A stretch of DNA of 64,000 nt from Candidatus Thorarchaeota archaeon (GCA_004524445.1 SDNP01000011.1:4943-68942); one strand, 5' to 3'; positions 4,937-45,565 are shown, counted from the first letter of the stretch. The notes: a model not told the origin generated them from the sequence alone. Made by a program: numbers and translations.

Positions 4937-5016
4937 ATCGATTGATGGAGATGGGGGGTTCTCTCAGCCTCGCGAAAGCCGATGTCATCTATGACAAGCT
5001 TGAAGCAGATGTCTTG

Positions 5017-5241
5017 CTATATTGACACACAAGTTTCTGTGCTCTTAATCCCAGGAATCTCATGGATTGCAAAGACCACTCGACGATAATCTGATTTCTC
5101 TGGCAACTCAACATAAGCGATGACATCATACGGCCCAGTTACCAAGTGAACTATCTCTACCTCATCAATTTCCTTGACTTTCTCATAGACTTGTTCAGCC
5201 TTTCCAACCTCTACATGCATTAGAACAACTGCCGTAACCAT
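5017..5241 (-). CDS. stand-alone Lrp/AsnC ligand-binding (RAM) domain protein
   Basis: A 74-aa product reads MVTAVVLMHVEVGKAEQVYEKVKEIDEVEIVHLVTGPYDVIAYVELP. Confidence 0.7.
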   Translation of the reverse strand: MVTAVVLMHVEVGKAEQVYEKVKEIDEVEIVHLVTGPYDVIAYVELPEKSDYRRVVFAIHEIPGIKSTETCVSI

Positions 5242-5450
5242 ATTGACGACCACGGAATGTGAATTTCTCATACATAGTATGACCCCTATACTGAAAAGGA
5301 TAGCTTAATCGGGTCAAGGTACCTGTATTTCTCACATTTGCTGCTATTCTCTTTTCCTGCAATGCAAGAAGAACTGCTCAACACCCGCTACAATTTGTAC
5401 ATGTGACCAGAATAGAAATAGGCAAAGAAGTAAAATACTCCTTTTGTATC

Positions 5451-5458
5451 TATATATT
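5451..5458 (+). promoter_or_regulatory. TATA-like box upstream of a small membrane-protein gene (possibly leaderless mRNA)
   Basis: tatatatt is centred about 27 nt before the ATG at 5482. Confidence 0.3.
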
Positions 5459-5481
5459 AACTCTCTTGGAGAACACTGAAA

Positions 5482-5703
5482 ATGAGCAAAGGAATTGCGA
5501 TACTTGGATTGCTACTGATTATTGTTGGCCTGCTTCCTATTTGGGCAGTATATCTACAACCGTACGTTGATTTGGCAATGATAGTTGGATACTTCAACCA
5601 AAATATATACTCACTAGATTTGGCCGGCTATGTCTTCACTGAAGTCATGCTTGGGCTAGTAGGCTTTGGAGTTTTACTCCTGATTATTGGTGCAGTCAAA
5701 TAG
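5482..5703 (+). CDS. small 2-TM membrane protein, hypothetical
   Basis: The 73-aa hydrophobic ORF is followed by a T7 run at about 5868. Confidence 0.35.
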   Translation: MSKGIAILGLLLIIVGLLPIWAVYLQPYVDLAMIVGYFNQNIYSLDLAGYVFTEVMLGLVGFGVLLLIIGAVK

Positions 5704-5882
5704 GAATCTCAAGTATTAGGTAGTACAATCTAGCTGCATTGGTTTTATCCAATAATGGATCGCGCCAGTAAGTGGAATTTGAGATTGATACATCAAGGGC
5801 AGGGGAGGCTCTTGATGGGGGCCTTTTGGGAATACTTGAAACCGTACAGAATGGCAGGCTTGGGGGGTTTTTTTGCTCCAGA

Positions 5883-27445: not shown

Positions 27446-30400
27446 TTGATAGTCCGTAGGCGGTTCTTTGCCGTCACTATTATGGCTCTACTCTCGCTTT
27501 ATGCTGTGGGGAGTATAGCTAAAAGTTTCGTGAATACGGGACAATCTGAGAGTATTACGCCGAGTTCCGAATTCTTTGATGAAACTCGCTTACGAAAGGA
27601 AGATGATTCTTCTGATTCTTTGTCGAAATACTCATTGTCTGACTCTGCACTCACCGGCACTCTGGACCCTGTAGAAGTTGAACAATCTGGATTCATAGCG
27701 ACAGGAAGCACATTTGCAAGAACAGACAATAGTTTCAATACAAATACTACACTCGGGATTGATAGGGCAAATGGATGGTTGGCTAGCCAAGCAGAAGCAC
27801 AAGTGTGGGGTCTTGAGAGAAGGTACGCTATTAACGGGACATTTGACGATGGCATACCTGGAACGTACGCTATGGTAAATGAAACTCCTGTCTACTATCC
27901 GTATGGTTGGAGCCCGAGCTACACCACTACAAACACTGGCCAAGCACAAGTAGCCGGATACGATGATTCAGGATATGCAATCTTGGAAAATCAAGGAAAT
28001 AAGGAGGGCCCGAGTGGGAACAAGTATACACATTATGCTGGCACGAAGATTCTCTGGAATCAAGAAATCACCAATCAGCCCTACACAAAGAACTTCACAC
28101 TAAACCTGAGATATCTGTACTCAAGAGGCCCCTTGGGTTCAGGAGTTCCTGGAGATTGTTCACTATCAGTGTTTGTCAATGATTCAGTAGTCTGGAGTCA
28201 GGCACTCCCTGATGTCGCAGGAAGGGGAATATGGATAGAAACTGGTGAAATTCCAATCAATATAGCAGATGCAGGAAATACCCTAGAATTTGCAGTTGGT
28301 ATTGTGATAGATGAAACAATGGCTTTGAATGCCGAGGAGGATTATAACGGGGATGAAATGGCAGAGGGGATCTCAAATACAGTCTATGTCACCGTCAATA
28401 TCGATGAAATCTCCTTTGTGGGCCTAAATCCCCCCTCATTTGAAGAAGTTGATTTTAATTTTTCCGCGGGCAATCAAACCACTTCGGTCACAGGTGCGTC
28501 TGGCAATGGAACTGCACTCATTTCCAAGAGTGACTATTGGTCTGTCGAGCAGTTGGACATTGCCTTTACTTCTAATGTCAGCGTATCTTTCAATTATGAT
28601 GCCTATTTACTCGAGCACAGGTTCCTCAACTCCAGCTTCACAACTAACACACATCAATTTGGTGTGAAGTACAGCATCTCGCATAATCAAAGTGCAAACC
28701 TCGAGTTATTCACATATGTTGGAACACAAGGCGAGTTTTTGGAATTCAACGTAACGATCAGGTATCCTACAGATTGGGAAAATGCAACTATCTACTCCCC
28801 GTTCTCAATCGATGTGACGACACAATGTCAAATAACGGAGGGTGAAGTGCGTATTCCAACAAGCCTTCTGGAAGATTTGGGTTGGTGGGATGTGGAGCTT
28901 CAGTCGCCAAATTATGCAAAATCTCTCAAAACCCAGATATATGACGATTCGACAGGCTGGACGGATGCTGTACTATTTAGGCCAGGAAACACAACCAGAA
29001 CATCAGTAGAGATAGGTACAACAGTAGAAACACCATCCATCTCTAATCCTGTAAATCTAACATGGTATCTGCCTAATGGTACTATTTGGTGGGATGAATC
29101 GACTACATCCGGAACTGCGGGATCTTTGAATTCTAGTCCAGTAGCGTTCGGCCCGACCAATACGACAGCCGGACCATGGAGCATTGAGATAGTTTGGTCA
29201 AACGGAACAGAAGTGGCTTATTCTTCCATTTCGTTTGCACTATATCATCAAGCCACCTTGACCCCCGTTTATAGCTTAATCGAGGGCGACGTTGATGAAA
29301 CAATCACCAACGTTCTGCGATTTGAAGACATATATTCTGGAGATTATCTGATGGCCGATGATGCTAACGTAATCGGCAATTGGTCTGGCACTTGGGTAGA
29401 TTTCATCCCCAACGTTGTAAAGAATTGGTGGGAGGGAGATTTCGATACTACAATTGTTGGCGGCGGGAACTTTACCGTACTTGTAAATGCGTCAAAGCCA
29501 TTCTATGATGATACAAGTTGCTTGTTCCAAATCACTTCCATATATGCCACTGAAATGCAAACTGATGCTCCCTCTGATGTCCCAGCAGAAATCAATTTCA
29601 ATGAACACTATTTGGTCAATATATCGTACAATCTCTCAAATGGCACTGGCATTGTAGATGCGACGATTGGTGTTGATTATACCGGACCAACGGGTGGACT
29701 GGACATAGATTCTCCAGTTCCTCAAACAACAGGAGAATACCAGCTAGAAATAACAGGACGCCAAACAGGAACGTATGTCATATCAATCGAGGCGTCAAAG
29801 GATTTCCACCACAGTCAAACTGATTCATTCACCCTAGAGGTATTAGAGGCGCCTACCACGCTCACTCAATTGAATGGTACAGCGGATTCTGTCAGATATG
29901 GTCAGGATTACAGATATGTCGTCAAATATGAGAATTCATCAGGAATCGGTCTAGAGAGTGCAGATATTAGTATAAGTAGCATAGACCCCTCAGTGGGCCT
30001 TGGTTTCAGTCCCACATCTGAGATCGGCGGGGGTTACTACTCTATATTGTTTAGCCCAACAGATACCTCAACATTCACAATTGTAGTCAAAGCAAACTTA
30101 TCAAACCATCAGACTCGCTTTGTCACTTTTACACTAACGGTATCCACTGTGCCAACTACATTGGCTTTGAATGCTACAAGCGAAACAATCTCCATTCAAG
30201 AGGTATTCGTTTTAGGACTAACCTTCATGGATGATTCTGGAGCTGGCATTCCTGGTGCGACTATCACAGCCCAAAACCCACCGGCCGACCTTCATATTTC
30301 ATCGGCGACTGATTATGGTGATGGAAACTATTCGATAGTCATAGATCCATTCTATTTCGGGACCTATCTACTCACTTTCTCTGCGTCCAAAACAAACCAT

Positions 30401-33304
30401 CAAACTGCAGCAAACTCCTTTTCGCTGATTGTTGACTCTGTCGGAACATCTTTGCTTCGACCAAACGGAACTGCAGACTCAATTTCATTTGGCGAAGACT
30501 ACCACCTCTTTGTAAGATATGTCAATAGTTCTGGATACGGCATAGAGGGCGCCAGTATTTCGGTGGTAGATACATCTCCTGAAACAGGGCTTGCCATAGG
30601 GGCTACCCAGGACGAAGGCGATGGATTTTACTCGATTCTTCTCTCGCCTAGCTTAACAGATACCTATAATCTGGTGATTGAAGCTAATTACACCAATCAC
30701 AAAGTGCAATATGTTACCTTCACTCTAACCGTCAACGATATACCAACTTCATTATTCCTGAACATATCGAGTATAACCATCTCCGTAAATGATCAGCTCG
30801 TAGTTGGGCTTATATTTGAGGACGAGTCCGGGACAGGCGTTCCAGGGGCGGTCATCACTCCACAGAGTCCTCCATCTGAACTTTCATTCTCCGCCACCAC
30901 TGACTATGGTGATGGTAACTACTCATTGGTTATCAATCCGATTTATTTTGGAAATTACCTACTAACGTTTTCAGCATCTAAAGCAAATTATCTAACGGGA
31001 TATGACTCATTCTCACTAACCGTTGATGAAGTAAACACAGTTTTGTTGCGGCAAAACGGAACAGCGGATTCCATCAAGTTTGGTGAAACCTATAATCTTG
31101 TTGTGAGATACGAAAATAGCTCGGGATATGGTATAGAGGGCGCATCTATCTCAATCTCCAGCATATCACCCGAGGAAGGCTTAGAAATTGGAATCACAGA
31201 TGATCTCGGCGATGGCTACTACTCCATTCTGCTAACTCCCACAACCGCTGATACATATACACTTGTAGTCAAAGCAAATATTACAAATCATAAGGTTCAG
31301 TTCGCCACGTTTTCCCTAACTATTAGTGAAATCCCAACTAGTCTAACTCCCTCACCGTCGAGCGCAACAATTGCTGTTGATTTGATGCAGACGGTTCTAC
31401 TCACATTCGAGGATGAGGAATCCAATGAGATAGAAGGTGCTACGATAACTGTACTGAACCTTCCTGATGGCCTGACCGTTTCGCAAATCGAAGAGGTGGA
31501 TAATGGGGTCTACCGTGTCATTCTTGACCCCAATGATGTCGGCACCTATTCGCTATCACTAAGGGCGACTCTCGTCAACTATCAAAACTCGACAGTTGGG
31601 TTCAGCCTGACGGTAAGAGAGATTCCAACTGACTTGTTGTTCATGGGTGGTGGTTCAGCAGCATCCGTAAACTTCTCTGACCCCTACACGCTAGAGCTGA
31701 TTTATGCAAGAACAGACCTTGGGGAGAATGTAACTGGAGCGACCATCAATATCACAATAAGCCAAGCAAATGGACCAGATTTCACTCTCACAACTCTTGG
31801 TGAGCTATACGCGATAACATTTGATACTTCAATTACTGGTTCTTGGACCATCACTATCCAAGCCGGTAAAGAGAATCATGAGAAGAAGAGTCGTGAATTC
31901 CAGTTGGCCATCGAAGCTGTTGAAACTAGCATTACAGATATCACATTGCAGGATGAGCTACTCTACGACCATACGTATGTATTCGATTACTATTACCTCA
32001 TTGATTGGAATAACACGGGCATCGACCAAGCTCATGTGACAGTGTCCGGAATTGATGCTGATTGGGTAGAGGTAATACCCAAGGGAGACGGACTTTACAC
32101 CATTAGTCTGACACCAACAAGCCTAGGACGACACTCGGCAGCCTTTCTTTTTGATAAGCCAGGTTATGTCAAGCAAAGAACAACTCTTCGTTTTGATGTG
32201 GAACAGGTAACAATCGGTATCGAAATCCTTAGTGAGCTCTCAGGCAATGCCGAATCTACCAAGACGTTAGAGCTCAGAATATACGAAATTGATAGCGGAA
32301 ACGCAGTTTTGAATGCCACCGCAACGTATCTTGTTATAGGATCTGAGAGTGGTTTGCTGGAACAGGGATTATTTACTGAAATGGGAGATGGTATCTACCG
32401 CGCCACATTCGCGATGCCTCCGGCAGATGATGAGGGTTATAGCTTAGAAGTCACCGTCAATAAGCCAAATCATGTGTTGGGTGCTTCGTTTGGCACATAT
32501 TCATTGAATCCCTATCTTAGTCAGGACCAAGTCTTGAATCAAATCATTCGAACATATGTTATTCCGCCAGCGGTGTTGGTGGTAGGTCTTATAGTTGCTT
32601 ATGGGGGATATCTTATCTACAGGAGAAGGAGAAGGGATGAAATCATCAAGCAGAATATTATCAAGAATATATTCAAGGATGCACAGAATCTCCTTGGAGC
32701 CTTGATACTCCATAGGAAGAGCGGAGTTCCTCTATATTCACGCATTATTAAAGGAGGCTTGGATGAAACGGTTGTTTCTGCATTTATTACCGCCATAACC
32801 CAGTTCAAGGCAGAATTCGACTTGGAAACAATTGGTGATGAATATGATGTTACCCCCATCTCAGATTTGATACGAATTGTACCCACAAGGAATTTGATAT
32901 GCGCATTCATCGTATTGAGAGACCCCAGTGAGCGACAGAAGCAAATGATGAAGGAATTCGCTCGGCAAATTGGATTCATTTGGGATGACATATATCAAGA
33001 CACACCATCCGAAATTCTTGATGATGCATCCAAGCGTCAATTCGATGAGTTATTCGATAACCTGTTAGATGGATCATTATTGAAGACTCACAAAATTGTT
33101 GATGAAAATGAGTTGCCTAGGCGAATGAAGTGTGTGCAAGAGGGTCTGGATAGAATTGATGAGGATCAATTCGAATTGCATGACTTGGCACAAGAGATTA
33201 CAGCTTGTGGACTTGAAGAGGGAAAGGCCTACAGCGTAATCATGGACGCATTACAAAACAATGTGATAATAGAGAAAGACGATGGGTCCTCCTCCAGTGA
33301 GTAG
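27446..33304 (+). CDS. giant (1952 aa) type-I surface protein: signal peptide, N-terminal beta-rich region, Ig-like repeats, one TM helix, and a cytoplasmic longin/roadblock-like plus winged-helix-like tail
   Basis: The signal peptide is MIVRRRFFAVTIMALLSLYAVG. Sequons are very abundant. Two-domain units of 197 aa occur in tandem. The TM helix VIPPAVLVVGLIVAYGGYLIY is followed by RRRRRD (32558..32640), then a cytoplasmic tail of about 225 aa. Confidence 0.85.
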   Translation: MIVRRRFFAVTIMALLSLYAVGSIAKSFVNTGQSESITPSSEFFDETRLRKEDDSSDSLSKYSLSDSALTGTLDPVEVEQSGFIATGSTFARTDNSFNTNTTLGIDRANGWLASQAEAQVWGLERRYAINGTFDDGIPGTYAMVNETPVYYPYGWSPSYTTTNTGQAQVAGYDDSGYAILENQGNKEGPSGNKYTHYAGTKILWNQEITNQPYTKNFTLNLRYLYSRGPLGSGVPGDCSLSVFVNDSVVWSQALPDVAGRGIWIETGEIPINIADAGNTLEFAVGIVIDETMALNAEEDYNGDEMAEGISNTVYVTVNIDEISFVGLNPPSFEEVDFNFSAGNQTTSVTGASGNGTALISKSDYWSVEQLDIAFTSNVSVSFNYDAYLLEHRFLNSSFTTNTHQFGVKYSISHNQSANLELFTYVGTQGEFLEFNVTIRYPTDWENATIYSPFSIDVTTQCQITEGEVRIPTSLLEDLGWWDVELQSPNYAKSLKTQIYDDSTGWTDAVLFRPGNTTRTSVEIGTTVETPSISNPVNLTWYLPNGTIWWDESTTSGTAGSLNSSPVAFGPTNTTAGPWSIEIVWSNGTEVAYSSISFALYHQATLTPVYSLIEGDVDETITNVLRFEDIYSGDYLMADDANVIGNWSGTWVDFIPNVVKNWWEGDFDTTIVGGGNFTVLVNASKPFYDDTSCLFQITSIYATEMQTDAPSDVPAEINFNEHYLVNISYNLSNGTGIVDATIGVDYTGPTGGLDIDSPVPQTTGEYQLEITGRQTGTYVISIEASKDFHHSQTDSFTLEVLEAPTTLTQLNGTADSVRYGQDYRYVVKYENSSGIGLESADISISSIDPSVGLGFSPTSEIGGGYYSILFSPTDTSTFTIVVKANLSNHQTRFVTFTLTVSTVPTTLALNATSETISIQEVFVLGLTFMDDSGAGIPGATITAQNPPADLHISSATDYGDGNYSIVIDPFYFGTYLLTFSASKTNHQTAANSFSLIVDSVGTSLLRPNGTADSISFGEDYHLFVRYVNSSGYGIEGASISVVDTSPETGLAIGATQDEGDGFYSILLSPSLTDTYNLVIEANYTNHKVQYVTFTLTVNDIPTSLFLNISSITISVNDQLVVGLIFEDESGTGVPGAVITPQSPPSELSFSATTDYGDGNYSLVINPIYFGNYLLTFSASKANYLTGYDSFSLTVDEVNTVLLRQNGTADSIKFGETYNLVVRYENSSGYGIEGASISISSISPEEGLEIGITDDLGDGYYSILLTPTTADTYTLVVKANITNHKVQFATFSLTISEIPTSLTPSPSSATIAVDLMQTVLLTFEDEESNEIEGATITVLNLPDGLTVSQIEEVDNGVYRVILDPNDVGTYSLSLRATLVNYQNSTVGFSLTVREIPTDLLFMGGGSAASVNFSDPYTLELIYARTDLGENVTGATINITISQANGPDFTLTTLGELYAITFDTSITGSWTITIQAGKENHEKKSREFQLAIEAVETSITDITLQDELLYDHTYVFDYYYLIDWNNTGIDQAHVTVSGIDADWVEVIPKGDGLYTISLTPTSLGRHSAAFLFDKPGYVKQRTTLRFDVEQVTIGIEILSELSGNAESTKTLELRIYEIDSGNAVLNATATYLVIGSESGLLEQGLFTEMGDGIYRATFAMPPADDEGYSLEVTVNKPNHVLGASFGTYSLNPYLSQDQVLNQIIRTYVIPPAVLVVGLIVAYGGYLIYRRRRRDEIIKQNIIKNIFKDAQNLLGALILHRKSGVPLYSRIIKGGLDETVVSAFITAITQFKAEFDLETIGDEYDVTPISDLIRIVPTRNLICAFIVLRDPSERQKQMMKEFARQIGFIWDDIYQDTPSEILDDASKRQFDELFDNLLDGSLLKTHKIVDENELPRRMKCVQEGLDRIDEDQFELHDLAQEITACGLEEGKAYSVIMDALQNNVIIEKDDGSSSSE
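29845..31617 (+). repeat. three in-frame tandem copies of a 591-nt (197-aa, two Ig-like domains) coding unit
   Basis: The N codon of the (L/P/Q)-NGTADS motif sits at 29873, 30464 and 31055. That is an exact 591-nt period, and the protein units are clearly alignable. Confidence 0.85.
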
Positions 33305-36301: not shown

Positions 36302-37129
36302 CTACTGACTCGTTCGCATCAGATAGTAATCGATTATACTCTCTTTCTTGATAATTGGAATGGCAAGTATTGCAATCAATACTAGGACTGCTGTGGCAAT
36401 GGCAGTGTAGCTGATCAACGCAATTGCAGCCTGTTTAATGGCAATTCCAACACTTGCCCAAATCACAACCAGACCATATGCAAAATCGTGCCGTAAGAAT
36501 ATCATCGATAGTGTAATGACCAATGCAATGATGATGACTGCAACCGTCCATAGTTCCTGAATCATTTGAGGAATTCCAGGAATCAAGACATTGAGTACGG
36601 ATGCGGTGCTGGCAATAGTGGCAAGCGAAATCCATCCAACATAGACGCTGACTGGCAAATGCACTGCTAGCTTCACACCAAGGGGAACCTCCGTTTCACC
36701 AATGCCAAGTCGCACATAGGTGAATAGAAGTGTAACCAGTAGGAGGACTATTGGCAACTCGGATAATACAAATAATGTTGGGTTACCAAACGAATAGTGG
36801 AATACTATCAGCCAAGAAATATTGAAAATTGCACCCACCAAATATAGGAAACTGATATCCTGAAGATACTCTTTTCCTCGTTCACTAGGTCTAACCTGGT
36901 AGATTGCGAAAGTAGCTAGAAGGATGTAGATAACTCCCCAAATCGCAAATACATAACCAGGGGGTGTGAATAGATTAGGATAAGAGTCTGCTACTTGACC
37001 AGTATTGACCCCGTTGAGAGGTAAAATGTTGGCCAGTGAATTGAAAACTATGGTTCCAAATATTGACACAATGTTAATAATCTGAAGGACCAGAGGGTTC
37101 GTTCTTGAAGACATGGAATCATTAACCAT
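36302..37129 (-). CDS. TspO/MBR-related polytopic membrane protein
   Basis: LPLNGVNTGQVADSYPNLFTPPGYVFAIWGVIYILL resembles the TspO-related family motif as I remember it. About 8 TM segments are predicted. Confidence 0.5.
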   Translation of the reverse strand: MVNDSMSSRTNPLVLQIINIVSIFGTIVFNSLANILPLNGVNTGQVADSYPNLFTPPGYVFAIWGVIYILLATFAIYQVRPSERGKEYLQDISFLYLVGAIFNISWLIVFHYSFGNPTLFVLSELPIVLLLVTLLFTYVRLGIGETEVPLGVKLAVHLPVSVYVGWISLATIASTASVLNVLIPGIPQMIQELWTVAVIIIALVITLSMIFLRHDFAYGLVVIWASVGIAIKQAAIALISYTAIATAVLVLIAILAIPIIKKESIIDYYLMRTSQ

Positions 37130-37309
37130 GGTTAATGCATAAAAGGGTAACGCTTGAATTCCTCATTTCTAAGAGTAAGCAAAAATTCTCGTGCATTCGC
37201 CTCAATCATGCTAGGAAGTAAATAATCTTCATGATGACAGAATAAAGGATAAAACATGCGCTCCTTTAAGAAGTGATAAGATTCTAAGATAAAACGGAGC
37301 AAGTGTGGC

Positions 37310-38371
37310 ATGGCAACTGAGCCGATAAGAAATGACGAATCAATGTTGAAGGAGGTCTTCTTGATAGATGAGGGCCTACTTCAGTTTCATTATAGCAACG
37401 ATTCTTCGGCCAGCGAGGATGATAAGGCGGTTCTTTCTTCGGGGCTGCTCACCGCGTTGCAGGACTTTAGCAGCCAAGCAAGATCTGGATCTCTGGAATC
37501 TTTTCTGACAGGTGATGAGTACTTTCTGTTTACAAAATGCCCAGAAACCGACAGAGTAGTTGTGGGAGTTTTTCATCGATTGGCTCCAGAAGAATTAGCT
37601 CGCGAGTCTCTTGAGAGGATTCAAGAGGTATTCAAGAGCGCTGATATCCCTGATGCATCCGGAAAACAACTGCCGGGTGATGAAAAACAAAGGCTCAGGA
37701 ACCTCATAAAAGAGATAGGCATTCATCTATTTGACAAAGAGTATTTCGAACTGCATATTGAAGAGCTGTTGAAAAATAGAAGCGACATCCCCTTGGCATT
37801 TCTTGTAGATACTACAGACAATTCGCTAGTTACACACTTTGCCCGACCCAAGCCACTCTTTCGGAAGAGCCAGCTGGATGATTTCCGTCTACTCTATTCA
37901 ACTCTAGAAAAATCTCTAACAAGCCTTGGTATTGCCACTGAGTATTCCTATTTCATAATCAAATCACAAGGCTATTCAGCTGCTTCATACAACTCAGTTC
38001 GATTTGCAAGCGTCGCTAGTGGAGCTATGAGAATCGATTCTGATGCGGTATTAGATGTCGCCATAAAAATGTGTGTTCCATCCGGTGAAATCCCGGATAT
38101 GGCAGATTTAGACCAAGGAGAAATAGAAGGCGTTTCGCTGTTATTCAATAATGGAATCCTGAAGCATGAGAGGGGAGAAAGACTTCCGTCTATGAGCCAA
38201 GTATATCTCTCGACTCTTGTCAATAATGCTGATGCGTTCTTCAAATCAGTCAATCGACGGGTCTTTACGAGATTCGATGTGTTCGGAGGAATAGCCCAAC
38301 CAAAGAGCATATCATTAATCCGAGAAGGGGATGGTAAGTCTCTAAGAGTCGAAATCAGACGTTTTCAATGA
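37310..38371 (+). CDS. protein with three tandem longin/roadblock-like modules
   Basis: GGAG lies 10 nt upstream. Three consecutive segments (aa 13-110, 158-255, 270-350) each show the order strand-strand-helix-strand-strand-strand(-helix). See the findings for detail. Confidence 0.6.
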   Translation: MATEPIRNDESMLKEVFLIDEGLLQFHYSNDSSASEDDKAVLSSGLLTALQDFSSQARSGSLESFLTGDEYFLFTKCPETDRVVVGVFHRLAPEELARESLERIQEVFKSADIPDASGKQLPGDEKQRLRNLIKEIGIHLFDKEYFELHIEELLKNRSDIPLAFLVDTTDNSLVTHFARPKPLFRKSQLDDFRLLYSTLEKSLTSLGIATEYSYFIIKSQGYSAASYNSVRFASVASGAMRIDSDAVLDVAIKMCVPSGEIPDMADLDQGEIEGVSLLFNNGILKHERGERLPSMSQVYLSTLVNNADAFFKSVNRRVFTRFDVFGGIAQPKSISLIREGDGKSLRVEIRRFQ

Positions 38372-38430
38372 AGCGAATGGCAATCCATTTTAGTAAGCAA
38401 TACTCTAGTCTATTGACGGACGAGTAGCTC

Positions 38431-39171
38431 ATGGAACAGACACCTAAGAAAATGACTTCAGATGATGAAGGCTCGCAGTTGGACGCTGTATTCCTTTACA
38501 TGGGGATTCTCGATGCGTATGAAGCTGTGGGAGTTGAGTTGATAGGGCCGGATGTCCTCGAGAATCATGTTCTCCCTCGAATGGTATACTATGTTAGAGA
38601 GTTCTTACCTGAGGTGTTCTCGGATCGTGCCAACGAACAGGATTTAGCTGCTGAACTACAGGCATTCTTGACGAACTTTCGTCAACGCGTTGATGATGCA
38701 CGTGGATCTGGAACAGCTGAGGGTTTGAACATGGAAGGCATATGGAAATTGAGAGCTGCCATTTTTGGCTATGAGAGTGTCTTCATCAACATTCTGGGTG
38801 AGGCAGCAATCAGGGATTATGTGTTCATACGAATAGCCGACATTCTTTCGGCCTATTTACCCGATAACCTTTTGGATCCGAATAGCCCCTTGGAAAACAA
38901 ACTGCGAGAGTATGCCAAATTTCTAACGGATCATGATTTTGTAAAATTTGCACGGGTAGAATCCAAGGGAGATACTATAGTAGTTGCAACCAACAACTGT
39001 GCATTTTCAAGAATCCACGATTCAGAAGCATACACAAACCTGAATGTGCGATTCTGTCCGTGGGGGATGATTGGTTCAGCAATCGTAGCAGCCCACGAAG
39101 GCAAAGAAACAGTTCTTGAGTCGAGCTTGTTCACCACAAGAGGAAGTGTAAGTAATATCGCAAAGAAATGA
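38431..39171 (+). CDS. V4R / Bet3(TRAPP)-like domain protein
   Basis: A helical N-terminal part is followed by DTIVVATNNCAFSRIHDS..NLNVRFCPWGMIGSAIVAAHEGKETVLESS. This is V4R-like but lacks the distal Cys pair. Confidence 0.5.
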   Translation: MEQTPKKMTSDDEGSQLDAVFLYMGILDAYEAVGVELIGPDVLENHVLPRMVYYVREFLPEVFSDRANEQDLAAELQAFLTNFRQRVDDARGSGTAEGLNMEGIWKLRAAIFGYESVFINILGEAAIRDYVFIRIADILSAYLPDNLLDPNSPLENKLREYAKFLTDHDFVKFARVESKGDTIVVATNNCAFSRIHDSEAYTNLNVRFCPWGMIGSAIVAAHEGKETVLESSLFTTRGSVSNIAKK

Positions 39172-39189
39172 GATAGGAGTGGAAAGATA

Positions 39190-39618
39190 ATGCAAATGAT
39201 AACTGGTGACCAAATCGCTACAATAGTATTTGTAATAGAAACCATTGTATTCATTTCCATAATGATTGGATGGATATATGGCTCTAAACGGATGGATTAT
39301 GACACCCACCACAGGATGATTTATCCAGCTGTGTTGATTCATCTGATCACCGTAAGCGCATGGATGATACCGCGTGCTATGCAGCTCGCCGAAGAAGGAC
39401 TATTCGCAGACCCTATAGCCAATTGGTATCAGATTGTCCATGATGTAGTGGGCTTTGTCGCAATAGGCCTGGGAGTAGTATTAGCAGTGACTTTTCTTGT
39501 CAAGTCGGGAATGCCACTAAATATTCTGCAAAAAGCCAAACCATTGATGTGGTTGACACTTGCTTTATGGTTGGTATCGTTTATTCTGGGTATTATTGCG
39601 TACCTAGCTCGGTTTTGA
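39190..39618 (+). CDS. 4-TM membrane protein (weakly DUF420-like)
   Basis: The gene starts 18 nt after the V4R-like gene, with GGAG upstream. Conserved-looking His residues occur in TM2 and TM3 (THHRMIYPAVLIH, IVHDVVG). Confidence 0.5.
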   Translation: MQMITGDQIATIVFVIETIVFISIMIGWIYGSKRMDYDTHHRMIYPAVLIHLITVSAWMIPRAMQLAEEGLFADPIANWYQIVHDVVGFVAIGLGVVLAVTFLVKSGMPLNILQKAKPLMWLTLALWLVSFILGIIAYLARF

Positions 39619-39702
39619 TACCACAAAAGCAGTCAAAATGTAAATGGTGCAATAGCTCTGGTGCCACAAAACGTATAATCAGAAATGGACTATTGAGTAC
39701 CG

Positions 39703-40035
39703 GTGCATGTTTTGGCCTCTACTACCTACGGACGGCTGTCCCCCATCCAACTTGATGAATTGAAAAAGCTCAAAGAGATCAAAGAAGCTTTAGATAGGCT
39801 GAAACGAAAAGGTATCTCTGCGGATATCCCCATCTGCCCCGTCTGCAAGAACCATAGACTTGTCAGGCTAACATCATATTATGACTTGGGCTATATTGGA
39901 AGCTTCCATCCAGCTTACTACTGTCTTGATTGTGGTTGGTATGGCAGGACAACTATCGTCATGTCCAATAGACCTGAGAAGAATGAAGTTCTTGAAGACA
40001 TGATATTTGCCTTCTCAGACCTAATGGAAGAGTAG
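39703..40035 (+). CDS. zinc-ribbon protein, hypothetical
   Basis: CPVCKN...CLDCGW (C-x2-C...C-x2-C) follows a short coiled segment. The GTG start is uncertain. Confidence 0.45.
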   Translation: MHVLASTTYGRLSPIQLDELKKLKEIKEALDRLKRKGISADIPICPVCKNHRLVRLTSYYDLGYIGSFHPAYYCLDCGWYGRTTIVMSNRPEKNEVLEDMIFAFSDLMEE

Positions 40036-40057: not shown

Positions 40058-40354
40058 TTATTCTTCATCGATTCGAGTTAGCTCGAAAATTACGGGGTTG
40101 AAGCCATCTGGACAAGCATGTGTTGCTGAACATTGATCTTCTAGCCATGGAAATCTTGCATTGTATGTCATGGCGTACACTTTAGGCATCATTGAATAGA
40201 GGGCACTTAGACATATTTTGCCCTTCACTTCTTCACCTGTGAAGATTATCTCATCCCCAACTTTGTGTCCCGCTGCACACTCACCCTCTTGAGAAATGAC
40301 GCTACACCGAATCTGCCAGGGTTTCTGTCTAATGCATTCTTCATTCATGGGGTT
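40058..40354 (-). CDS. TIGR04076 family protein
   Basis: CAAGHKVGDEIIF...CLSALYSMMPKVYAM..ARFPW...CPDGFNPVIFELTR is present. I placed the start at the internal ATG. Confidence 0.7.
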   Translation of the reverse strand, partial: NPMNEECIRQKPWQIRCSVISQEGECAAGHKVGDEIIFTGEEVKGKICLSALYSMMPKVYAMTYNARFPWLEDQCSATHACPDGFNPVIFELTRIDEE

Positions 40355-40607
40355 CATCTCTTTCGAATTATATTCTGAGCTCCCATATAGACTTTGTACC
40401 TGCGGTGAACTAGCATTCAAACCATGATTGTACTTCTGTCTTTACGAGGTCGGATTTCTCCCTATCCACCAACGGGTAAATGCCATAACAATCTATTGTG
40501 GTCATTTCTTTGGGATGAAACTCTCTCTATGCTATTCCATTTCGCTGATCCTCTAAGGAAATGGCTAGTTCTATGATGACGCCCTCGTGTCCGTGAAGCC
40601 TATTTGT

Positions 40608-41228
40608 TTAACTAGATGATTCAGGCCTCTTGGTTTTTTTGTAGTAGTCACAAATTGAGCGTAGAAAGCAAATATCACATTTTGGTGATCGAGCCTTACA
40701 AATTTCTCTTCCGTGTTTCACAAGATTGTGATTTAGAGAATAGATGCAGTTTTCGGGAATAATCTCCTCAAGGAGAGGCTGGGCCTGCTCTCGGGAAGTA
40801 TTGTGGGAAATCAGACCCAGTCTTTTTGTAACTCTCCAAACGTGCGTATCAACAGGAAGGGTGGGTTTCCCAAAGCAGAATAATAGCACAATAGAGGCAG
40901 TCTTTGGGCCTACTCCATGAAGCGAAGTCAACCAGTCCAAGGCCTCATCTCTATCCATGTGGTCTAGAAGGCCGATATCGAGTCCACCTACACGCTGTTT
41001 AATTTCTCCTAAAGATGCCTGGATCCGTTCTGCCTTGATGCGGAAGAACCCCGAAGAACGAATCGTATCTGCAACTTCTGATTGAGGAGCCTCTAGGACT
41101 TCCTCCCACGTGTCATAGGCTTCCTTCAGGGCGTGGTAACCTCTATACATATTCACATTGGATGTGTTCTGGCTAAGAATTGTCAAAACCAACTCGTCAA
41201 TGGGAGGCAGGTTTCTTTCTACAACCAC
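40608..41228 (-). CDS. nth: endonuclease III (HhH-GPD with a 4Fe-4S loop)
   Basis: LHGVGPKTASIVL, VDTHVWRV and C-x6-C-x2-C-x5-C (CKARSPKCDICFLRSIC) are present. The real start is probably upstream of the GTG at 41228; see the finding. Confidence 0.8.
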   Translation of the reverse strand: MVVERNLPPIDELVLTILSQNTSNVNMYRGYHALKEAYDTWEEVLEAPQSEVADTIRSSGFFRIKAERIQASLGEIKQRVGGLDIGLLDHMDRDEALDWLTSLHGVGPKTASIVLLFCFGKPTLPVDTHVWRVTKRLGLISHNTSREQAQPLLEEIIPENCIYSLNHNLVKHGREICKARSPKCDICFLRSICDYYKKTKRPESSS

Positions 41229-41377
41229 ATCACCATAATGGTCTATGAGTTGTCTACATACGGTTTCTGCCTTGGATTTGAAATCGATACTAGGTTCCTC
41301 CTTTACTCCATGCTATCGTCAGATGTCTATTCAGAAACGTTTAGTTAAGGGTAATATCAGTTATCTTTTGATTCACG

Positions 41378-41794
41378 ATGACAGTTCTTGTAATTTACGA
41401 AACTACCAGGGGCCGAACAAGAGCAATGGCGGAAGCAATATGCAAAGGCGTTGAGTCGGAGGGCAAAACCTGCAATCTGGTGGAGTCCAAGAATTTTCGG
41501 AGCCTTGGAGAGCCATGCGCCATTGCGATGGGGAGTTCAACGAGGATGAAACGGATTCTACCAAAATTACGAAGGGTTCTTGCGGAATTGCCAGATCTTC
41601 CCGGCACTCCTGCGGCAGCATTTGGCTCTTACGGCTGGAGTGGAGAGGCACCTGATACAATTGCAGAGGAATTGAAAAAATCGGGCGCCGTATTGGTTGA
41701 AGATCAGCCCATAAAAGCAAAAGACTACCCCAGCGAGGAAAGCCTCGAAAGATGCAAAGAACTGGGTGTTGTTCTAGCTAAACACTGTGACTGA
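41378..41794 (+). CDS. flavodoxin-domain protein
   Basis: VLVIYETTRGRTRAMAEAI ... AAAFGSYGWSGEA is present. Confidence 0.8.
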   Translation: MTVLVIYETTRGRTRAMAEAICKGVESEGKTCNLVESKNFRSLGEPCAIAMGSSTRMKRILPKLRRVLAELPDLPGTPAAAFGSYGWSGEAPDTIAEELKKSGAVLVEDQPIKAKDYPSEESLERCKELGVVLAKHCD

Positions 41795-41865
41795 TTGATA
41801 TTCTTTTGATGTCGATGTCACAACTCTTATCATTCAAAGCCTGATTTCCAAGGGAGAGCGGCAAA

Positions 41866-43758
41866 ATGCAGTATATTAGAAGGCTAACTGGATATGCCTT
41901 AAGGTATAAACCACTATTTTTCGGATTCCTAGCGTGTGCTGGGATTGGTACCTTATTCAATATATTGAGCCCACTTGTTCTTGCCAATATCATTGATGTC
42001 GTGATTTACCAGGGCCAATATGACCAACTTGCCGCTAATGTCATTCTCTATGTCATACTAATGGGACTATATGCGATATTTGATATCGCGGGTCGGTACG
42101 GTGCGGCTATCACATCTCAAAAGATCATCTACGACCTGAGGAAAGAGCTATACGACGCCTTGATGGAAAAGGACCTCTCGTTTTATGATCAGGAGGAAAC
42201 AGGTCAACTGCTCGCAAGGGTCACAACCGATGTCAATCAAATGAAACGGTTCCTCTTTTGGGGATATCGGGTGATATTCATAGGGTTTGCCACCATTGTG
42301 GGTGTCTACTTTGTCATGTACACACTGAGTGTCAGCTTAACGCTGTTCATGCTATTGCTTGTTCCGATAATCATCACTTTTGTCTATGTATTTGCACGGA
42401 AGGTTAGGCCCGTCTTTATTGCTGCAAGGGACCAATTTGGTGACCTTAGTTCAGTTCTATCGGAAAATATTGTAGGAATGAAGGTAGTAAAGAGCTATGC
42501 CGCGGGGAATCGTGAAACAGAGAGAGTGAGAGAGGAGAACAAAAAATTCTTGGATTTGCGCGTGGAAGCATTCAAGCTTTTCGCATTTTATAGACCATTG
42601 CTTCCAACCCTCTTTGGTGTGGTCACTGGGATTCTGATTTTCATCGGCGGATACTCATTCATTCTGGGAGACCTCTCATATGGCGTCTTTGTTGGCTTTG
42701 TGACCTTGGTGGGAATGCTCATGTTGCCTGCTCGGTTCCTCAGTTGGGGGGTTGGAATGTATCAGAGAGCCTCAGCAGCAGGTGAGCGCTCGTTCTATAT
42801 TCTTGACCACAAAGATGAAGTTGTAAGTCCCGAGAACCCAGTCACAAAAGAAATCGAAGGAAAAATAGAATTCGAGAACGTCTATTTCAGTTACGGTAGA
42901 GATACGTACATTCTCAAGGGAATCACAATGAAGGCGAATCCTGGGAATGTGGTGGCATTACTAGGAGGCACAGGTTCGGGGAAGACAACTCTCATGAATC
43001 TGATTCCAAGGTTCTATGATGCCGACACAGAGAGAAATGTTTCCTATCAGGGTGAAACTTACAAGGTGATTGATGGTTTTGTAAAAATAGTGGACAAAGA
43101 ATACGAAGTAGACAACGGAACAGTCACAATCGAAGGCGAGCAGTTGGAAGTTGTCGAGCCCGGTAGGCTCTATATCGATGGAGTGGATGTACGTGACTAT
43201 AATCTAGATGTGCTGAGAGGGAGTATCGGGATGGTCCATCAAGACCCCTTCTTATTCTCAGCCACAATACGAGAGAATATTGCATTCGCGAAACCCAATG
43301 CGCCTCTTGAGGAAGTAATAGATGCGGCCAAGGCCGCCATGATTCATGATTTCATTGAAACTCTTGACGAAGGGTATGATGCGCCAGTGGGAGAGAGAGG
43401 AGTAACTTTGAGTGGAGGGCAAAAACAGCGCATAGCAATTGCGAGAGCTCTCTTGGCGAATCCAAGGATTTTGATACTGGACGACTCGACTAGCTCTGTC
43501 GATGCCAATACTGAGATGAAGATTCAGATGGCTCTAGAGAATCTGATGGTAGGCAGAACCACCTTCATCATCACCCATAGATTAAGCACAGTTAGAAATG
43601 CAGATCAAATAGTCATGTTAGAGAGGGGCAAAATTGTAGAAAAGGGCAGTCATGAAGAGCTCATGAAAGAAGAAGGGCTGTATGCAGGAATACATGATAC
43701 ATTGTTTGAGATGGAACTTGCTGCTTCTGCGATAGAAGGAGGTGCATCTGGTGAGTAG
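41866..43758 (+). CDS. ABC exporter fused permease/ATPase (ABCB-type, subunit 1)
   Basis: A six-TM domain is followed by Walker A GGTGSGKTT, the signature LSGGQKQR and Walker B ILILDD. The NBD carries an insertion of about 44 aa. Confidence 0.9.
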   Translation: MQYIRRLTGYALRYKPLFFGFLACAGIGTLFNILSPLVLANIIDVVIYQGQYDQLAANVILYVILMGLYAIFDIAGRYGAAITSQKIIYDLRKELYDALMEKDLSFYDQEETGQLLARVTTDVNQMKRFLFWGYRVIFIGFATIVGVYFVMYTLSVSLTLFMLLLVPIIITFVYVFARKVRPVFIAARDQFGDLSSVLSENIVGMKVVKSYAAGNRETERVREENKKFLDLRVEAFKLFAFYRPLLPTLFGVVTGILIFIGGYSFILGDLSYGVFVGFVTLVGMLMLPARFLSWGVGMYQRASAAGERSFYILDHKDEVVSPENPVTKEIEGKIEFENVYFSYGRDTYILKGITMKANPGNVVALLGGTGSGKTTLMNLIPRFYDADTERNVSYQGETYKVIDGFVKIVDKEYEVDNGTVTIEGEQLEVVEPGRLYIDGVDVRDYNLDVLRGSIGMVHQDPFLFSATIRENIAFAKPNAPLEEVIDAAKAAMIHDFIETLDEGYDAPVGERGVTLSGGQKQRIAIARALLANPRILILDDSTSSVDANTEMKIQMALENLMVGRTTFIITHRLSTVRNADQIVMLERGKIVEKGSHEELMKEEGLYAGIHDTLFEMELAASAIEGGASGE

Positions 43759-45565
43759 TGGACTTGATACTCAAGATGATCCGGATGCTAGGACCTACGA
43801 ATATTCTGATTCAACTCTCCTTAGGAGGATGGTTGGGTACCTGCTTGTATATGGAAAGGAATTCGCGTTTGTATCGGTACTTGTTGCAATAAGTATCGTT
43901 TTTGATATTGCTATCCCCTTCGTCATGAAACAAGCTATCGATGTAGACTTCCCCAGTGGTGACCTGCAAGCACTTGCAACAACAGCCGGGTTATACGTTG
44001 CTTTGCGACTTGGTGTCTGGGCAACTACCTACGGAACAGAATACATCACATCAAGAATGGGAGAGAATGCCATTTACGATATTCGGCAAGAGCTCTATGA
44101 ACACTTACAGAACCTCTCTCAAGACTTCTATGATCAGTCTTCATCAGGACGTGTTATCAGCCGCTTGACAAATGACATAGAAAAGATGAGCGAACTACTA
44201 AATGGTGGACTCATCACTACGTTCGCACAGATATTCATCGTCATAGCAATAGGTGGTGTCATCTTCTCGGTTGATTTCCAACTGGCATTGGTCTCGCTGG
44301 GCGTAGTCCCACTATTGCTAATCTCCACCATATACTTCAGAAAGAAGCTGCGGGAGGCATATCGCAGTACGCGAAAGACAATTTCTAGTGTGACTTCGAA
44401 TTTTGCAGAGAGTATCTCGGGAGCAAAGGTCACCAAGAGCTTTGCAAGAGAGGACACGAACGTTGAGATCTTTGACGAGGTCAATAAAGCGGATTATGAA
44501 TCAAATATTGATGCTGGAAAAGCGCAATCCACCTTTTTCCCCACAATTCGGTTTATCGGCGGCCTCGGAATCATTCTCATCTTATGGTTCGGTGGTTTCA
44601 GGCTTATTGAAGGAACCATATCATTGGGAACCGTTGTTCTCTTCCTTCAGTTCAATGACAGGTTCTTCAGGCCAATCCTCATCATCTCAAACTTTTACAC
44701 ATCCGTTCAAAGTGCATTTGCCGGTGGAGAACGAGTATTCTCGGTTCTTGATGAAGAACCGTCGATTGTAGATAGGGAAGACGCCATTGTGATGCCCCCC
44801 GTAAGGGGACATGTGGAATTCAATGATGTGACGTTTGGATATGTAGAAGATAAGCCCGTTCTCGAAGATTTCAATCTTGAGATAAAACCAGGTGAATCTA
44901 TTGCTCTGGTGGGAGATACAGGTGCAGGAAAATCAACTGTGGTCAACCTCCTAAATCGGTTCTATGATGTCTGGGAAGGCACAGTAGAAATAGATGACAT
45001 GGATATCAGAAACTTCACCCTCGAGTCCTTGAGAGAAAACATTGGACTTGTTCTTCAAGATCCTTTCCTCTTTATGGGCACCGTCTTGGAAAACATTCGA
45101 TACGGAAAGCCAGACGCAACAAAGGAAGAAGTAATCAAAGCAACTGAAGCAATCGGAGCAAAGAGAGTACTAAAGACTCTCAAGAATGGATTCGAAACGG
45201 AGGTAGGTGAGAGAGGAGGGATGCTATCGGAGGGAGAACGCCAGCTCGTTAGCTTTGCGCGTGCGCTGCTTGCAGATCCACGCATCCTCGTTTTAGACGA
45301 AGCTACAAGCTCTATTGATGTATATACTGAATATGCGATCCAGAAGGGAATGAAAGCACTCCTAGAAGGAAGAACCTCCATCGTGATAGCTCACAGACTG
45401 TCGACCATAGTGAATGCAGATCGAATACTTGTGCTTGAAGATGGTAAGATTGTTGAAACCGGTACACATGCAGAACTAATCGAGAAGAGAGGTAAGTACT
45501 TCTCGCTTTATGAGCTGCAAATCAAACCTCGTGCAATGCAAAAAGCGGCTCAGGCAAAAACATAG
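43751..45565 (+). CDS. ABC exporter fused permease/ATPase (ABCB-type, subunit 2)
   Basis: Walker A GDTGAGKST, LSEGERQ and ILVLDEATS are present. GGAGG lies 9 nt before the GTG at 43751. The track start at 43742 directly abuts that motif. Confidence 0.9.
   Translation: MSSGLDTQDDPDARTYEYSDSTLLRRMVGYLLVYGKEFAFVSVLVAISIVFDIAIPFVMKQAIDVDFPSGDLQALATTAGLYVALRLGVWATTYGTEYITSRMGENAIYDIRQELYEHLQNLSQDFYDQSSSGRVISRLTNDIEKMSELLNGGLITTFAQIFIVIAIGGVIFSVDFQLALVSLGVVPLLLISTIYFRKKLREAYRSTRKTISSVTSNFAESISGAKVTKSFAREDTNVEIFDEVNKADYESNIDAGKAQSTFFPTIRFIGGLGIILILWFGGFRLIEGTISLGTVVLFLQFNDRFFRPILIISNFYTSVQSAFAGGERVFSVLDEEPSIVDREDAIVMPPVRGHVEFNDVTFGYVEDKPVLEDFNLEIKPGESIALVGDTGAGKSTVVNLLNRFYDVWEGTVEIDDMDIRNFTLESLRENIGLVLQDPFLFMGTVLENIRYGKPDATKEEVIKATEAIGAKRVLKTLKNGFETEVGERGGMLSEGERQLVSFARALLADPRILVLDEATSSIDVYTEYAIQKGMKALLEGRTSIVIAHRLSTIVNADRILVLEDGKIVETGTHAELIEKRGKYFSLYELQIKPRAMQKAAQAKT

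Follow-up and report, generated by a model that had tools for sequence, protein, structure and literature searches.

The 64,000-nucleotide (nt) stretch of DNA analysed here, referred to below as the window, comes from Candidatus Thorarchaeota archaeon (GCA_004524445.1 SDNP01000011.1:4943-68942), and the names of its homologues point to a Thorarchaeota-type Asgard archaeon. Positions 37130-40035 hold four consecutive genes, g1 to g4, which encode a predicted tri-longin protein, a V4R/Bet3-fold protein, a four-helix membrane protein and a zinc-ribbon protein. An earlier note, made from the sequence of the window alone, had proposed that these genes form one operon and a possible undescribed system with no GTPase in sight. 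In this paper we report that the first three genes stay together in all informative loci of a broad Asgard sample, and that the conserved unit, judged by gene order, is the three-gene core g1-g2-g3 and not a set of four. The reading that we prefer, tentatively and at a grade short of probable, is that the three proteins make up a membrane-anchored longin/V4R platform that would regulate a small GTPase encoded elsewhere in the genome.

Linkage was scored in 41 non-redundant loci that encode a g2 homologue, taken from metagenome-assembled genomes labelled Thor, Hermod, Frey, Hod, Kari and Heimdall and from several uncultured lineages. Both g1 and g3 lie alongside g2 in 38 of these loci, and the remaining three are contig ends, so that the triplet is present in all 38 informative loci. 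An apparent truncation of g2 in CP070658 (L042) is a masked run of N and not a biological feature. Outside Thorarchaeota, the genes that flank g1-g2-g3 are unrelated among lineages, and the linkage is therefore not inherited synteny. Where g2 and g3 share a strand, the gap between them is -8 to +18 nt in 35 of 35 loci, and this overlap or near-abutment suggests that the two genes are translationally coupled. The orientation of g3 is reversed, and thus convergent, in three complete Heimdall-type loci (gaps -8 to +4 nt) and in the cut locus L041, yet g3 still abuts g2 there, so the linkage outlives the loss of co-transcription. The earlier note had made its proposal of a system depend on conservation of the gene order in relatives; the order holds for g1-g2-g3, adjacent in 38 of 38 informative loci, and does not extend to g4.

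The AlphaFold2 model of g1 (predicted local distance difference test score (pLDDT) 84.8, predicted template modelling score (pTM) 0.76) consists of three successive ββαβββ(α) units, longin-like domains LD1 (about residues 12-112), LD2 (about 158-258) and LD3 (about 266-353), with a two-helix linker at residues 123-154. In a Foldseek search of the PDB the best 24 matches were all subunits of tri-longin domain (TLD, or 'HerMon') Rab guanine nucleotide exchange factors (GEFs), namely Mon1, Ccz1, Fuzzy, Inturned and the HPS1/HPS4 subunits of BLOC-3, with E-values from 4.7e-10 (the best, for Mon1/Ccz1) to 2e-4 over about 400 aligned columns. The next class of match, the PAS-GAF-PHY modules of phytochromes, was weaker than the best TLD matches by about four or more orders of magnitude. 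Taken singly, domains of g1 matched MK-D1 Roadblock3 (template modelling score (TM-score) 0.73), MglB (TM-score 0.72), the longin domain of VAMP7, and 2j3t_C, a chain of the bet3-trs33-bet5-trs23 TRAPP subcomplex. The helix motif SSGxxxAxQxF of LD1 is the most conserved element across all clades of the g1 family, including the GTPase-linked clade described below.

The fold of g1 is assigned from structure prediction alone, and sequence searches returned almost nothing. None of the Pfam models for longin, roadblock, Mon1, Fuz or V4R matched g1 or g2 at a meaningful E-value; when members of the g1 family were scanned singly against Pfam, only 2 of 50 touched Fuz_longin_3, at E 0.19, and the g1 profile found nothing better than E 0.49 among PDB sequences. 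Alignment of LD1, LD2 and LD3 with one another by hhalign gave no detectable similarity, and the triplication, if it is one, is ancient. An exhaustive profile search of 1.84 billion cluster representatives recovered 56 proteins, 54 of them of 357 amino acids (aa) or fewer; the remaining two, of 460 and 1,617 aa, match over stretches of about 40-50 residues only, with E>1e-5. The family appears to be compact and archaeal, with no sequence bridge to eukaryotic proteins. The triple longin-like character that had been claimed for g1 is thus upheld by the three ββαβββ units and the TLD-only top matches, at the level of structure and with no sequence profile behind it.

The model of g2 (pLDDT 87, pTM 0.84) has an N-terminal extension of three helices (residues ~10-93) followed by a domain (residues ~100-246) with the element order α-α-α-β-β-α-β-β. 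Foldseek matched it to the V4R sensor domains of PoxR, MopR and DmpR, to BcsD and to the TRAPP core subunit 7b6d_G, and these matches were weak (probability 0.9-1.0, E 0.02-0.3, TM-score 0.37-0.48, about 150 columns). The C-terminal 150 or so residues may thereby be assigned, weakly and by structural likeness, to the V4R/Bet3 superfold, which is as far as the earlier description of g2 as V4R-like can be carried, since no sequence profile detects the relationship: searches of Pfam, NCBIfam and PADLOC gave no match, and the V4R and TRAPP_Bet3 models of Pfam matched none of 50 family members at E up to 10. The protein is itself strongly conserved, with 55-70% identity from Thor to Hod, Frey and Heimdall lineages. 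An alignment of 50 sequences has 54 invariant columns, among them C190, H196, C209 and H222, and the first three of these residues lie in the region where V4R/TRAPPC3 proteins have their zinc site, with a spacing that differs from the described sites.

Hydropathy gives g3 four hydrophobic segments, and its orthologues are 135-171 aa long. The conserved positions are E17, H40/H41, W58-M59, H84, G88 and M120; among 65 orthologues, M59, H84 and G88 are present in all 65, H40 and M120 in 64 and W58 and E17 in 63. By the positive-inside rule, H40/H41 and M120 would lie at the cytoplasmic boundary of the membrane and W58-M59 and H84 at the outer boundary. The DUF420 model (PF04238) matches g3 collinearly and over its full length at 20.3 bits, below the gathering score of 30.5, and the match is present in one of six orthologues. 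The Joint Genome Institute (JGI) name of a 94%-identical homologue is 'YozB (DUF420 family)', and the g3 profile has no significant relative among PDB sequences; a tblastn search of plasmids with g3 gave a single match, of no relevance. The four transmembrane segments previously predicted for g3 are therefore retained; the idea of a plain anchor fits poorly with the invariant intramembrane His and Met residues and the weak DUF420 likeness.

In the mechanism that we propose, the products of g1, g2 and g3 would together form a single conserved, membrane-associated, Asgard-specific complex, with g3 as its four-helix membrane subunit, g2 as a V4R/Bet3-fold protein translationally coupled to g3, and g1 as a tri-longin scaffold whose domains are laid out as in the TLD Rab-GEF subunits of eukaryotes. 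The resulting longin/V4R platform at the membrane would bind and regulate, as a GEF or a GTPase-activating protein, a small GTPase of the Ras superfamily whose gene lies elsewhere in the genome, and the His/Met sites of g3 together with the pocket and the Cys/His site of g2 may couple its activity to a bound ligand or metal. The gene g4 would supply a Thor-specific zinc-ribbon accessory under its own promoter. We prefer this mechanism because of the TLD-only fold matches of g1, the use of longin and Bet3 folds in building the TRAPP core, the family-wide LD1 motif, and a single adjacency between a g1 paralogue and a Rab-like gene.

That adjacency lies outside the triplet. A rough neighbour-joining tree of the g1 family sets the operonic clades (Thor/Frey/Hod/Kari, and Heimdall) apart from a divergent clade, clade C, whose members do not adjoin g2 or g3. 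Positions 5001-6706 of locus L053 encode a divergent g1 paralogue (P0240, 338 aa) and, 120 nt downstream of it on the same strand, a Rab-like GTPase of 189 aa; the motifs of the GTPase are GDGATGKT, WDLAGQQRF, GNKSDL and ETSAK. A second clade-C paralogue has an Arf/Ras-like gene 4.5 kb away, and two other clade-C loci have no GTPase nearby. Metagenome scans for further members of this clade added little: the first alignment was too divergent, and the second gave one short locus, without a GTPase. The adjacency is suggestive only, because Asgard genomes encode many GTPases.

Several observations weigh against the platform as we have drawn it. Among about 40 loci, no GTPase gene is linked to g1-g2-g3, save isolated ones 2-6 kb off in L042 and L043. 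Direct adjacency of paralogue and GTPase occurs in one of four clade-C loci, against a chance expectation that we estimate at ~5-10%, and switch I of the L053 GTPase reads HNLTVGADF, without the Tyr-Lys motif used by TLD GEFs. The global TM-score of g1 to TLD proteins is just 0.22-0.30, which implies that the order of the domains is common to both and their packing is not. The g1 of the window matches nothing in Pfam, NCBIfam or PADLOC, and no sequence-level homology was found between g1 and the Mon1, Ccz1, Fuzzy, longin or roadblock families; because the likeness is one of architecture and does not extend to sequence, we describe g1 as an archaeal protein with predicted TLD architecture and do not file it as a member of the TLD family. 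Prokaryotic V4R domains are typically binders of small molecules, and in g3 the invariant His and Met residues point to a function with a cofactor or metal and not to a passive anchor. The missing GTPase is not disqualifying, because Asgard small GTPases generally share no operon with the longin, roadblock or TRAPPC3 genes of the same organisms (Tran 2024, PMC10933270).

Like the TLD Rab-GEF subunits, which are its exclusive top structural matches, g1 has three consecutive longin-type α/β domains in one polypeptide. It differs from them in its length (~340 aa against 400-600 or more), in the packing of its domains and in having no sequence homology to them. Eukaryotes use a heterodimeric pair of TLD proteins, two paralogous subunits joined via LD1, whereas the operon holds one TLD-type gene. 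The putative partners of g1 are a V4R-fold protein and a four-transmembrane protein, with no cognate Rab linked, and any GEF activity of g1 would be putative. Eukaryotic TLD complexes reach membranes via accessory subunits or recruiters, and TLD GEFs use a switch-I Tyr-Lys/Arg motif of the Rab (PMC12383261). One Kariarchaeota assembly, GCA_016839545, has both an operonic g1 with g2-g3 (L044, 218-2455) and a stand-alone paralogue (L048, 3714-4724; also L047, 4387-5397), and heterodimers of these two TLD-like proteins are conceivable.

The TRAPP core is built jointly from longin-fold and Bet3-fold subunits, and the same point has been made for Asgard proteins (Tran 2024, PMC10933270). The predicted V4R/Bet3 and longin folds of g2 and g1 are those of the Bet3 family and of the longin subunits Bet5, Trs23 and Trs20, as the matches of g2 to 7b6d_G and of a g1 domain to 2j3t_C illustrate; in g1, however, the longin domains are fused in one chain, whereas in TRAPP they are separate subunits. 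Solved Thor-TRAPPC3 has the same set of structural neighbours as g2, and Thor-TRAPPC3 and V4R proteins carry a zinc site near the sheet and the D helix (Tran 2024, PMC10933270). The invariant Cys and His residues of g2 fall in the corresponding region, with the pattern C-x5-H-x12-C instead of a four-Cys site, and g2 has an extra three-helix domain at its N-terminus. We considered whether g2 is the Thor-TRAPPC3 of Tran et al. and rejected this, as the g2 profile gave no sequence match to PDB chains, Thor-TRAPPC3 included, and the Thor-TRAPPC3 structure does not appear in the 50 best fold matches of g2. Another conserved Asgard neighbourhood built on a Roadblock/longin-superfamily protein is the operon of a LAMTOR1-like roadblock protein, a Rab-like GTPase and a DENN protein, which has been proposed as a GEF module (Liu et al.). 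That operon holds its own GTPase and DENN protein, whereas g1-g2-g3 has neither; in their stead, g1 is accompanied by a V4R-fold protein and a membrane protein.

The conserved His and Met residues of g3 and its weak likeness to DUF420 open a reading without a GTPase, one absent from the earlier note, which is the main rival to the platform and which we consider possible and on balance somewhat unlikely. The triplet would then encode a membrane module for metal or cofactor handling or for redox sensing, in which g3, as a distant DUF420/CtaM-like protein, would bind or translocate copper or ligate heme via its His and Met residues, g2 would be a cytosolic partner with a metal or hydrophobic ligand at the Cys/His site of its V4R pocket, and g1 would be a regulatory scaffold. 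The full-length DUF420 match, the YozB/DUF420 name of the close homologue and the common layout of four transmembrane segments in ~140-160 aa speak for this, as do the invariant M59 and H84 and the near-invariant H40 and M120, all at membrane boundaries, the invariant C190, H196 and C209 of g2, the binding of zinc and ligands by V4R/TRAPPC3 proteins (PMC10933270), and the lack of a linked GTPase. A role in exporting copper for the assembly of oxidases has lately been proposed for CtaM/DUF420 proteins (PMC13344008). The triplet stands directly 5' of a heme-copper oxidase cluster, DOMON-COX3-COX2-COX1-COX4-SCO1, in the Hodarchaeales loci L005/L006 and L037; in L005 (7364-12738) and L037 (9277-13761) it is followed on the same strand by DOMON, COX3, COX2 and COX1, with COX4 and SCO1 in L005. 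At L052 (3609-10939), from a different lineage, TatA/TatC genes lie upstream of the triplet and a convergent NrfD/4Fe-4S/DOMON unit adjoins it downstream, so that a redox cluster with a DOMON gene is its neighbour for a second time. Against these points, the DUF420 score is below the cut-off and one in six orthologues matches, and reports of CtaM are confined to genomes that have aa3-type oxidases (PMC4958251). The g3 gene is kept in lineages without an aa3-oxidase context, always coupled to g2 and g1, which is not a known context of CtaM; the triplet is best conserved in Thor and Frey, where none of ~30 fetched loci has a COX or DOMON gene. Thor and Frey lineages are generally regarded as anaerobes. 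Adjacency to COX genes is confined to the Hodarchaeales loci named above, and oxidase assembly as the general function was rejected on that ground. A metal module also leaves no role for the ~350-aa tri-longin g1, which is linked as tightly as g2 and g3.

The structural neighbours of g2 allow for another reading without a GTPase, to which we give rather little credence, namely a ligand-gated signalling module in which g2 would sense a small hydrophobic molecule at a g3 receptor, as the V4R domains of XylR, DmpR and PoxR do, g1 would use its longin domains to relay the signal to a target other than a GTPase, such as a transcription or translation factor, and g4 would be a Thor-specific output. 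The best consistent neighbours of the C-terminal domain of g2 are indeed the ligand-binding V4R domains of PoxR, MopR, DmpR and XylR (probability ~1.0, TM-score 0.37-0.45, ~150 columns), sensors that bind small molecules and zinc. Fusions of longin domains to two-component signalling domains are frequent in Asgard archaea (Liu et al.), and the zinc ribbon of g4 is conserved, has the Cys spacing of a ZPR1-type finger and is linked to the triplet whether it stands before or after it. In none of the four proteins was a DNA-binding, kinase or receiver domain found, and most lineages that have the triplet lack g4. Unlike the sensors, g2 is a stand-alone protein and not the N-terminal module of a σ54 activator, and none of 50 members matches Pfam V4R; its 55-70% identity across classes is far more than would be expected of a ligand-specific sensor and leaves us with the impression of a structural or complex-forming role. 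That the four genes are unrelated neighbours kept by plain synteny, with fold likenesses due to chance, is effectively refuted. A downstream block at 40058-45565 (TIGR04076 family, HhH-GPD glycosylase, flavodoxin and two ABC exporters) is also syntenic in ~15 Thor-type loci, so within Thorarchaeota the local gene order is in part a matter of common descent, but the surroundings of the triplet change completely in Frey, Hod, Heimdall, Kari and further lineages while the triplet itself persists, an inverted g3 does not break it up, g2 and g3 overlap or all but touch at every locus, and the top 24 fold matches of g1 all belong to one protein class. The GTPase platform and the metal or cofactor reading may also be combined, and we speculate on a 'transceptor', a longin platform gated by a membrane subunit that binds a metal or ligand.

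An Asgard-wide family of ~340-aa proteins with TLD architecture is a concrete candidate for a predicted ancestor. For the six eukaryotic TLD proteins, Sanchez-Pulido and Ponting inferred descent from a single-gene, homodimeric tri-longin ancestor (PMC7703760), and g1 has this single-gene tri-longin architecture. In a stronger form, which we hold to be unlikely, g1 would be the surviving single-gene ancestral type of Mon1-Ccz1, BLOC-3 and Fuzzy-Inturned and, with its Bet3-fold partner and membrane subunit, would form a primordial GEF platform, precursor-like to the TLD and TRAPP machineries; if so, such a platform was already present across the Asgard archaea before eukaryogenesis. In either form, g1-g2-g3 is a conserved and tractable three-protein module that bears on the origin of the eukaryotic Rab-GEF machinery. 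Should the metal or cofactor reading be true instead, the longin and V4R 'trafficking' folds had another job in the archaeal ancestor, and more caution would be needed in inferring eukaryote-like trafficking from inventories of folds alone. No description of the g1-g2-g3 cluster or of any archaeal tri-longin protein was found in the literature searched, a search that did not take in the supplementary tables of Liu et al., where g1 may be catalogued as an unnamed 'Roadblock/longin' core asCOG. The TLD Rab-GEF papers searched treat TLDs as eukaryotic, do not mention Asgard archaea and leave the tri-longin ancestor unreported; no paper was found that uses 'tri-longin' and 'Asgard' together, and those that name both Asgard and Mon1 describe no such protein.

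The product of g4 has a zinc ribbon (CPVC-X25-CLDC), an N-terminal helix and an acidic tail. Its 13 orthologues have a mean column identity of 62%, and all four Cys residues are invariant. The ZPR1 finger model TIGR00340 matches at E 0.0034 and 16.8 bits, against a cut-off of 117.95, over 47 of 163 profile positions, that is, the finger only, and the spacing CX2C-X25-CX2C is that of a ZPR1-type finger. Eukaryotic ZPR1 partners the GTPase eEF1A. The gene is confined to a subset of Thor-type loci, where it usually stands 3' of g3 and in three loci before g1, and it is absent from Frey, Hod, Heimdall and Kari loci. A CAAAAC-GTGTATAAT box, resembling a B recognition element (BRE) and TATA box, is kept in 10 of 10 aligned g4 upstream regions, including the three in which g4 precedes g1. 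The copy in the window, CAAAACGTATAAT, is centred ~27 nt before GTG 39703, and a loose pattern for the box has one match on the plus strand and one on the minus strand of the whole 64 kb. Because a BRE/TATA-like box lies ~27 nt before its start, g4 probably has a separate transcript, leaderless or nearly so. The gene appears to be a lineage-specific Thor accessory, separately promoted and outside the conserved core; the zinc ribbon that had been recognised in it is sound, while its place as the fourth gene of the operon is undercut by its Thor-only distribution, its variable position and its own box.

The features of the region are collected in the table below.

Table 1. Genes and presumed regulatory elements in and around the g1-g4 region, numbered from the first letter of the window
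Feature	Position	Strand	Description
g1	37310-38371	+	353 aa, soluble; predicted tri-longin/roadblock protein
g2	38431-39171	+	246 aa, soluble; C-terminal domain with a putative V4R/Bet3 superfold
g3	39190-39618	+	142 aa, integral membrane protein, four transmembrane segments
g4	39703-40035	+	110 aa, GTG start, zinc-ribbon protein
Divergent intergenic region 5' of g1	37130-37309		180 nt; presumed g1-g2-g3 promoter region
BRE/TATA-like box CAAAACGTATAAT 5' of g4	39667-39679	+	conserved upstream of g4; putative promoter element
TspO/MBR gene	36302-37129	-	divergent neighbour, shares the intergenic region with g1
TIGR04076-family gene	40058-40420	-	convergent; ends the four-gene run

All four open reading frames (ORFs) are real genes, since each has many conserved orthologues, and their coordinates, their spacing (59, 18 and 84 nt for g1/g2, g2/g3 and g3/g4) and their divergent and convergent flanks are exactly as the earlier note gave them. 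The intergenic region upstream of g1, which had been called AT-rich, has the length and divergent layout described and is only moderately so (36.7% GC against 44.4% window-wide). This region is the presumed promoter of the g1-g2-g3 unit; it contains TATA-like sequences, TTTAAG at 37265 and ATAAAA at 37289, and a GGAG 10-13 nt before ATG 37310. Orthologues of g1 begin at the equivalent of M12 (ATG 37343) and those of g4 align from TTG 39712, so the true starts may be these two codons, giving slightly shorter proteins. The window has no tRNA and no Rfam match, and a reading as a defence system was rejected for lack of PADLOC matches. The claim that the 64 kb encodes no small GTPase agrees with both of our surveys: phmmer with three Asgard Ras/Arf-like proteins found nothing at E<1, and Walker A motifs occur in ABC-type ATPases only, apart from two degenerate matches that are not P-loops.

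A giant repetitive surface protein of 1952 aa with a C-terminal transmembrane segment is encoded at 27446-33304, and its cytoplasmic tail had been thought to hold a module related to those of the operon. The tail has a ββα stretch, VSAFITAITQF, that resembles the LD1 motif SSGLLTALQDF of g1. A relationship is undetectable by profile comparison, in which hhalign of the receptor tail with the g1 profile gave a probability of 0.1, not significant, and the claim is not supported.

Some neighbours of the triplet were seen in single lineages and are not conserved across loci, namely a Sec23/24-like VWA protein in Freyarchaeia (L003, 8838-10382) and an arrestin-like protein in a Thor genome (L001, 2794-3654). 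Near a Heimdall-type triplet, the minus strand of L051 (7085-9391) encodes a 768-aa protein with a longin-like N-terminus (TSSLSAIMTF).

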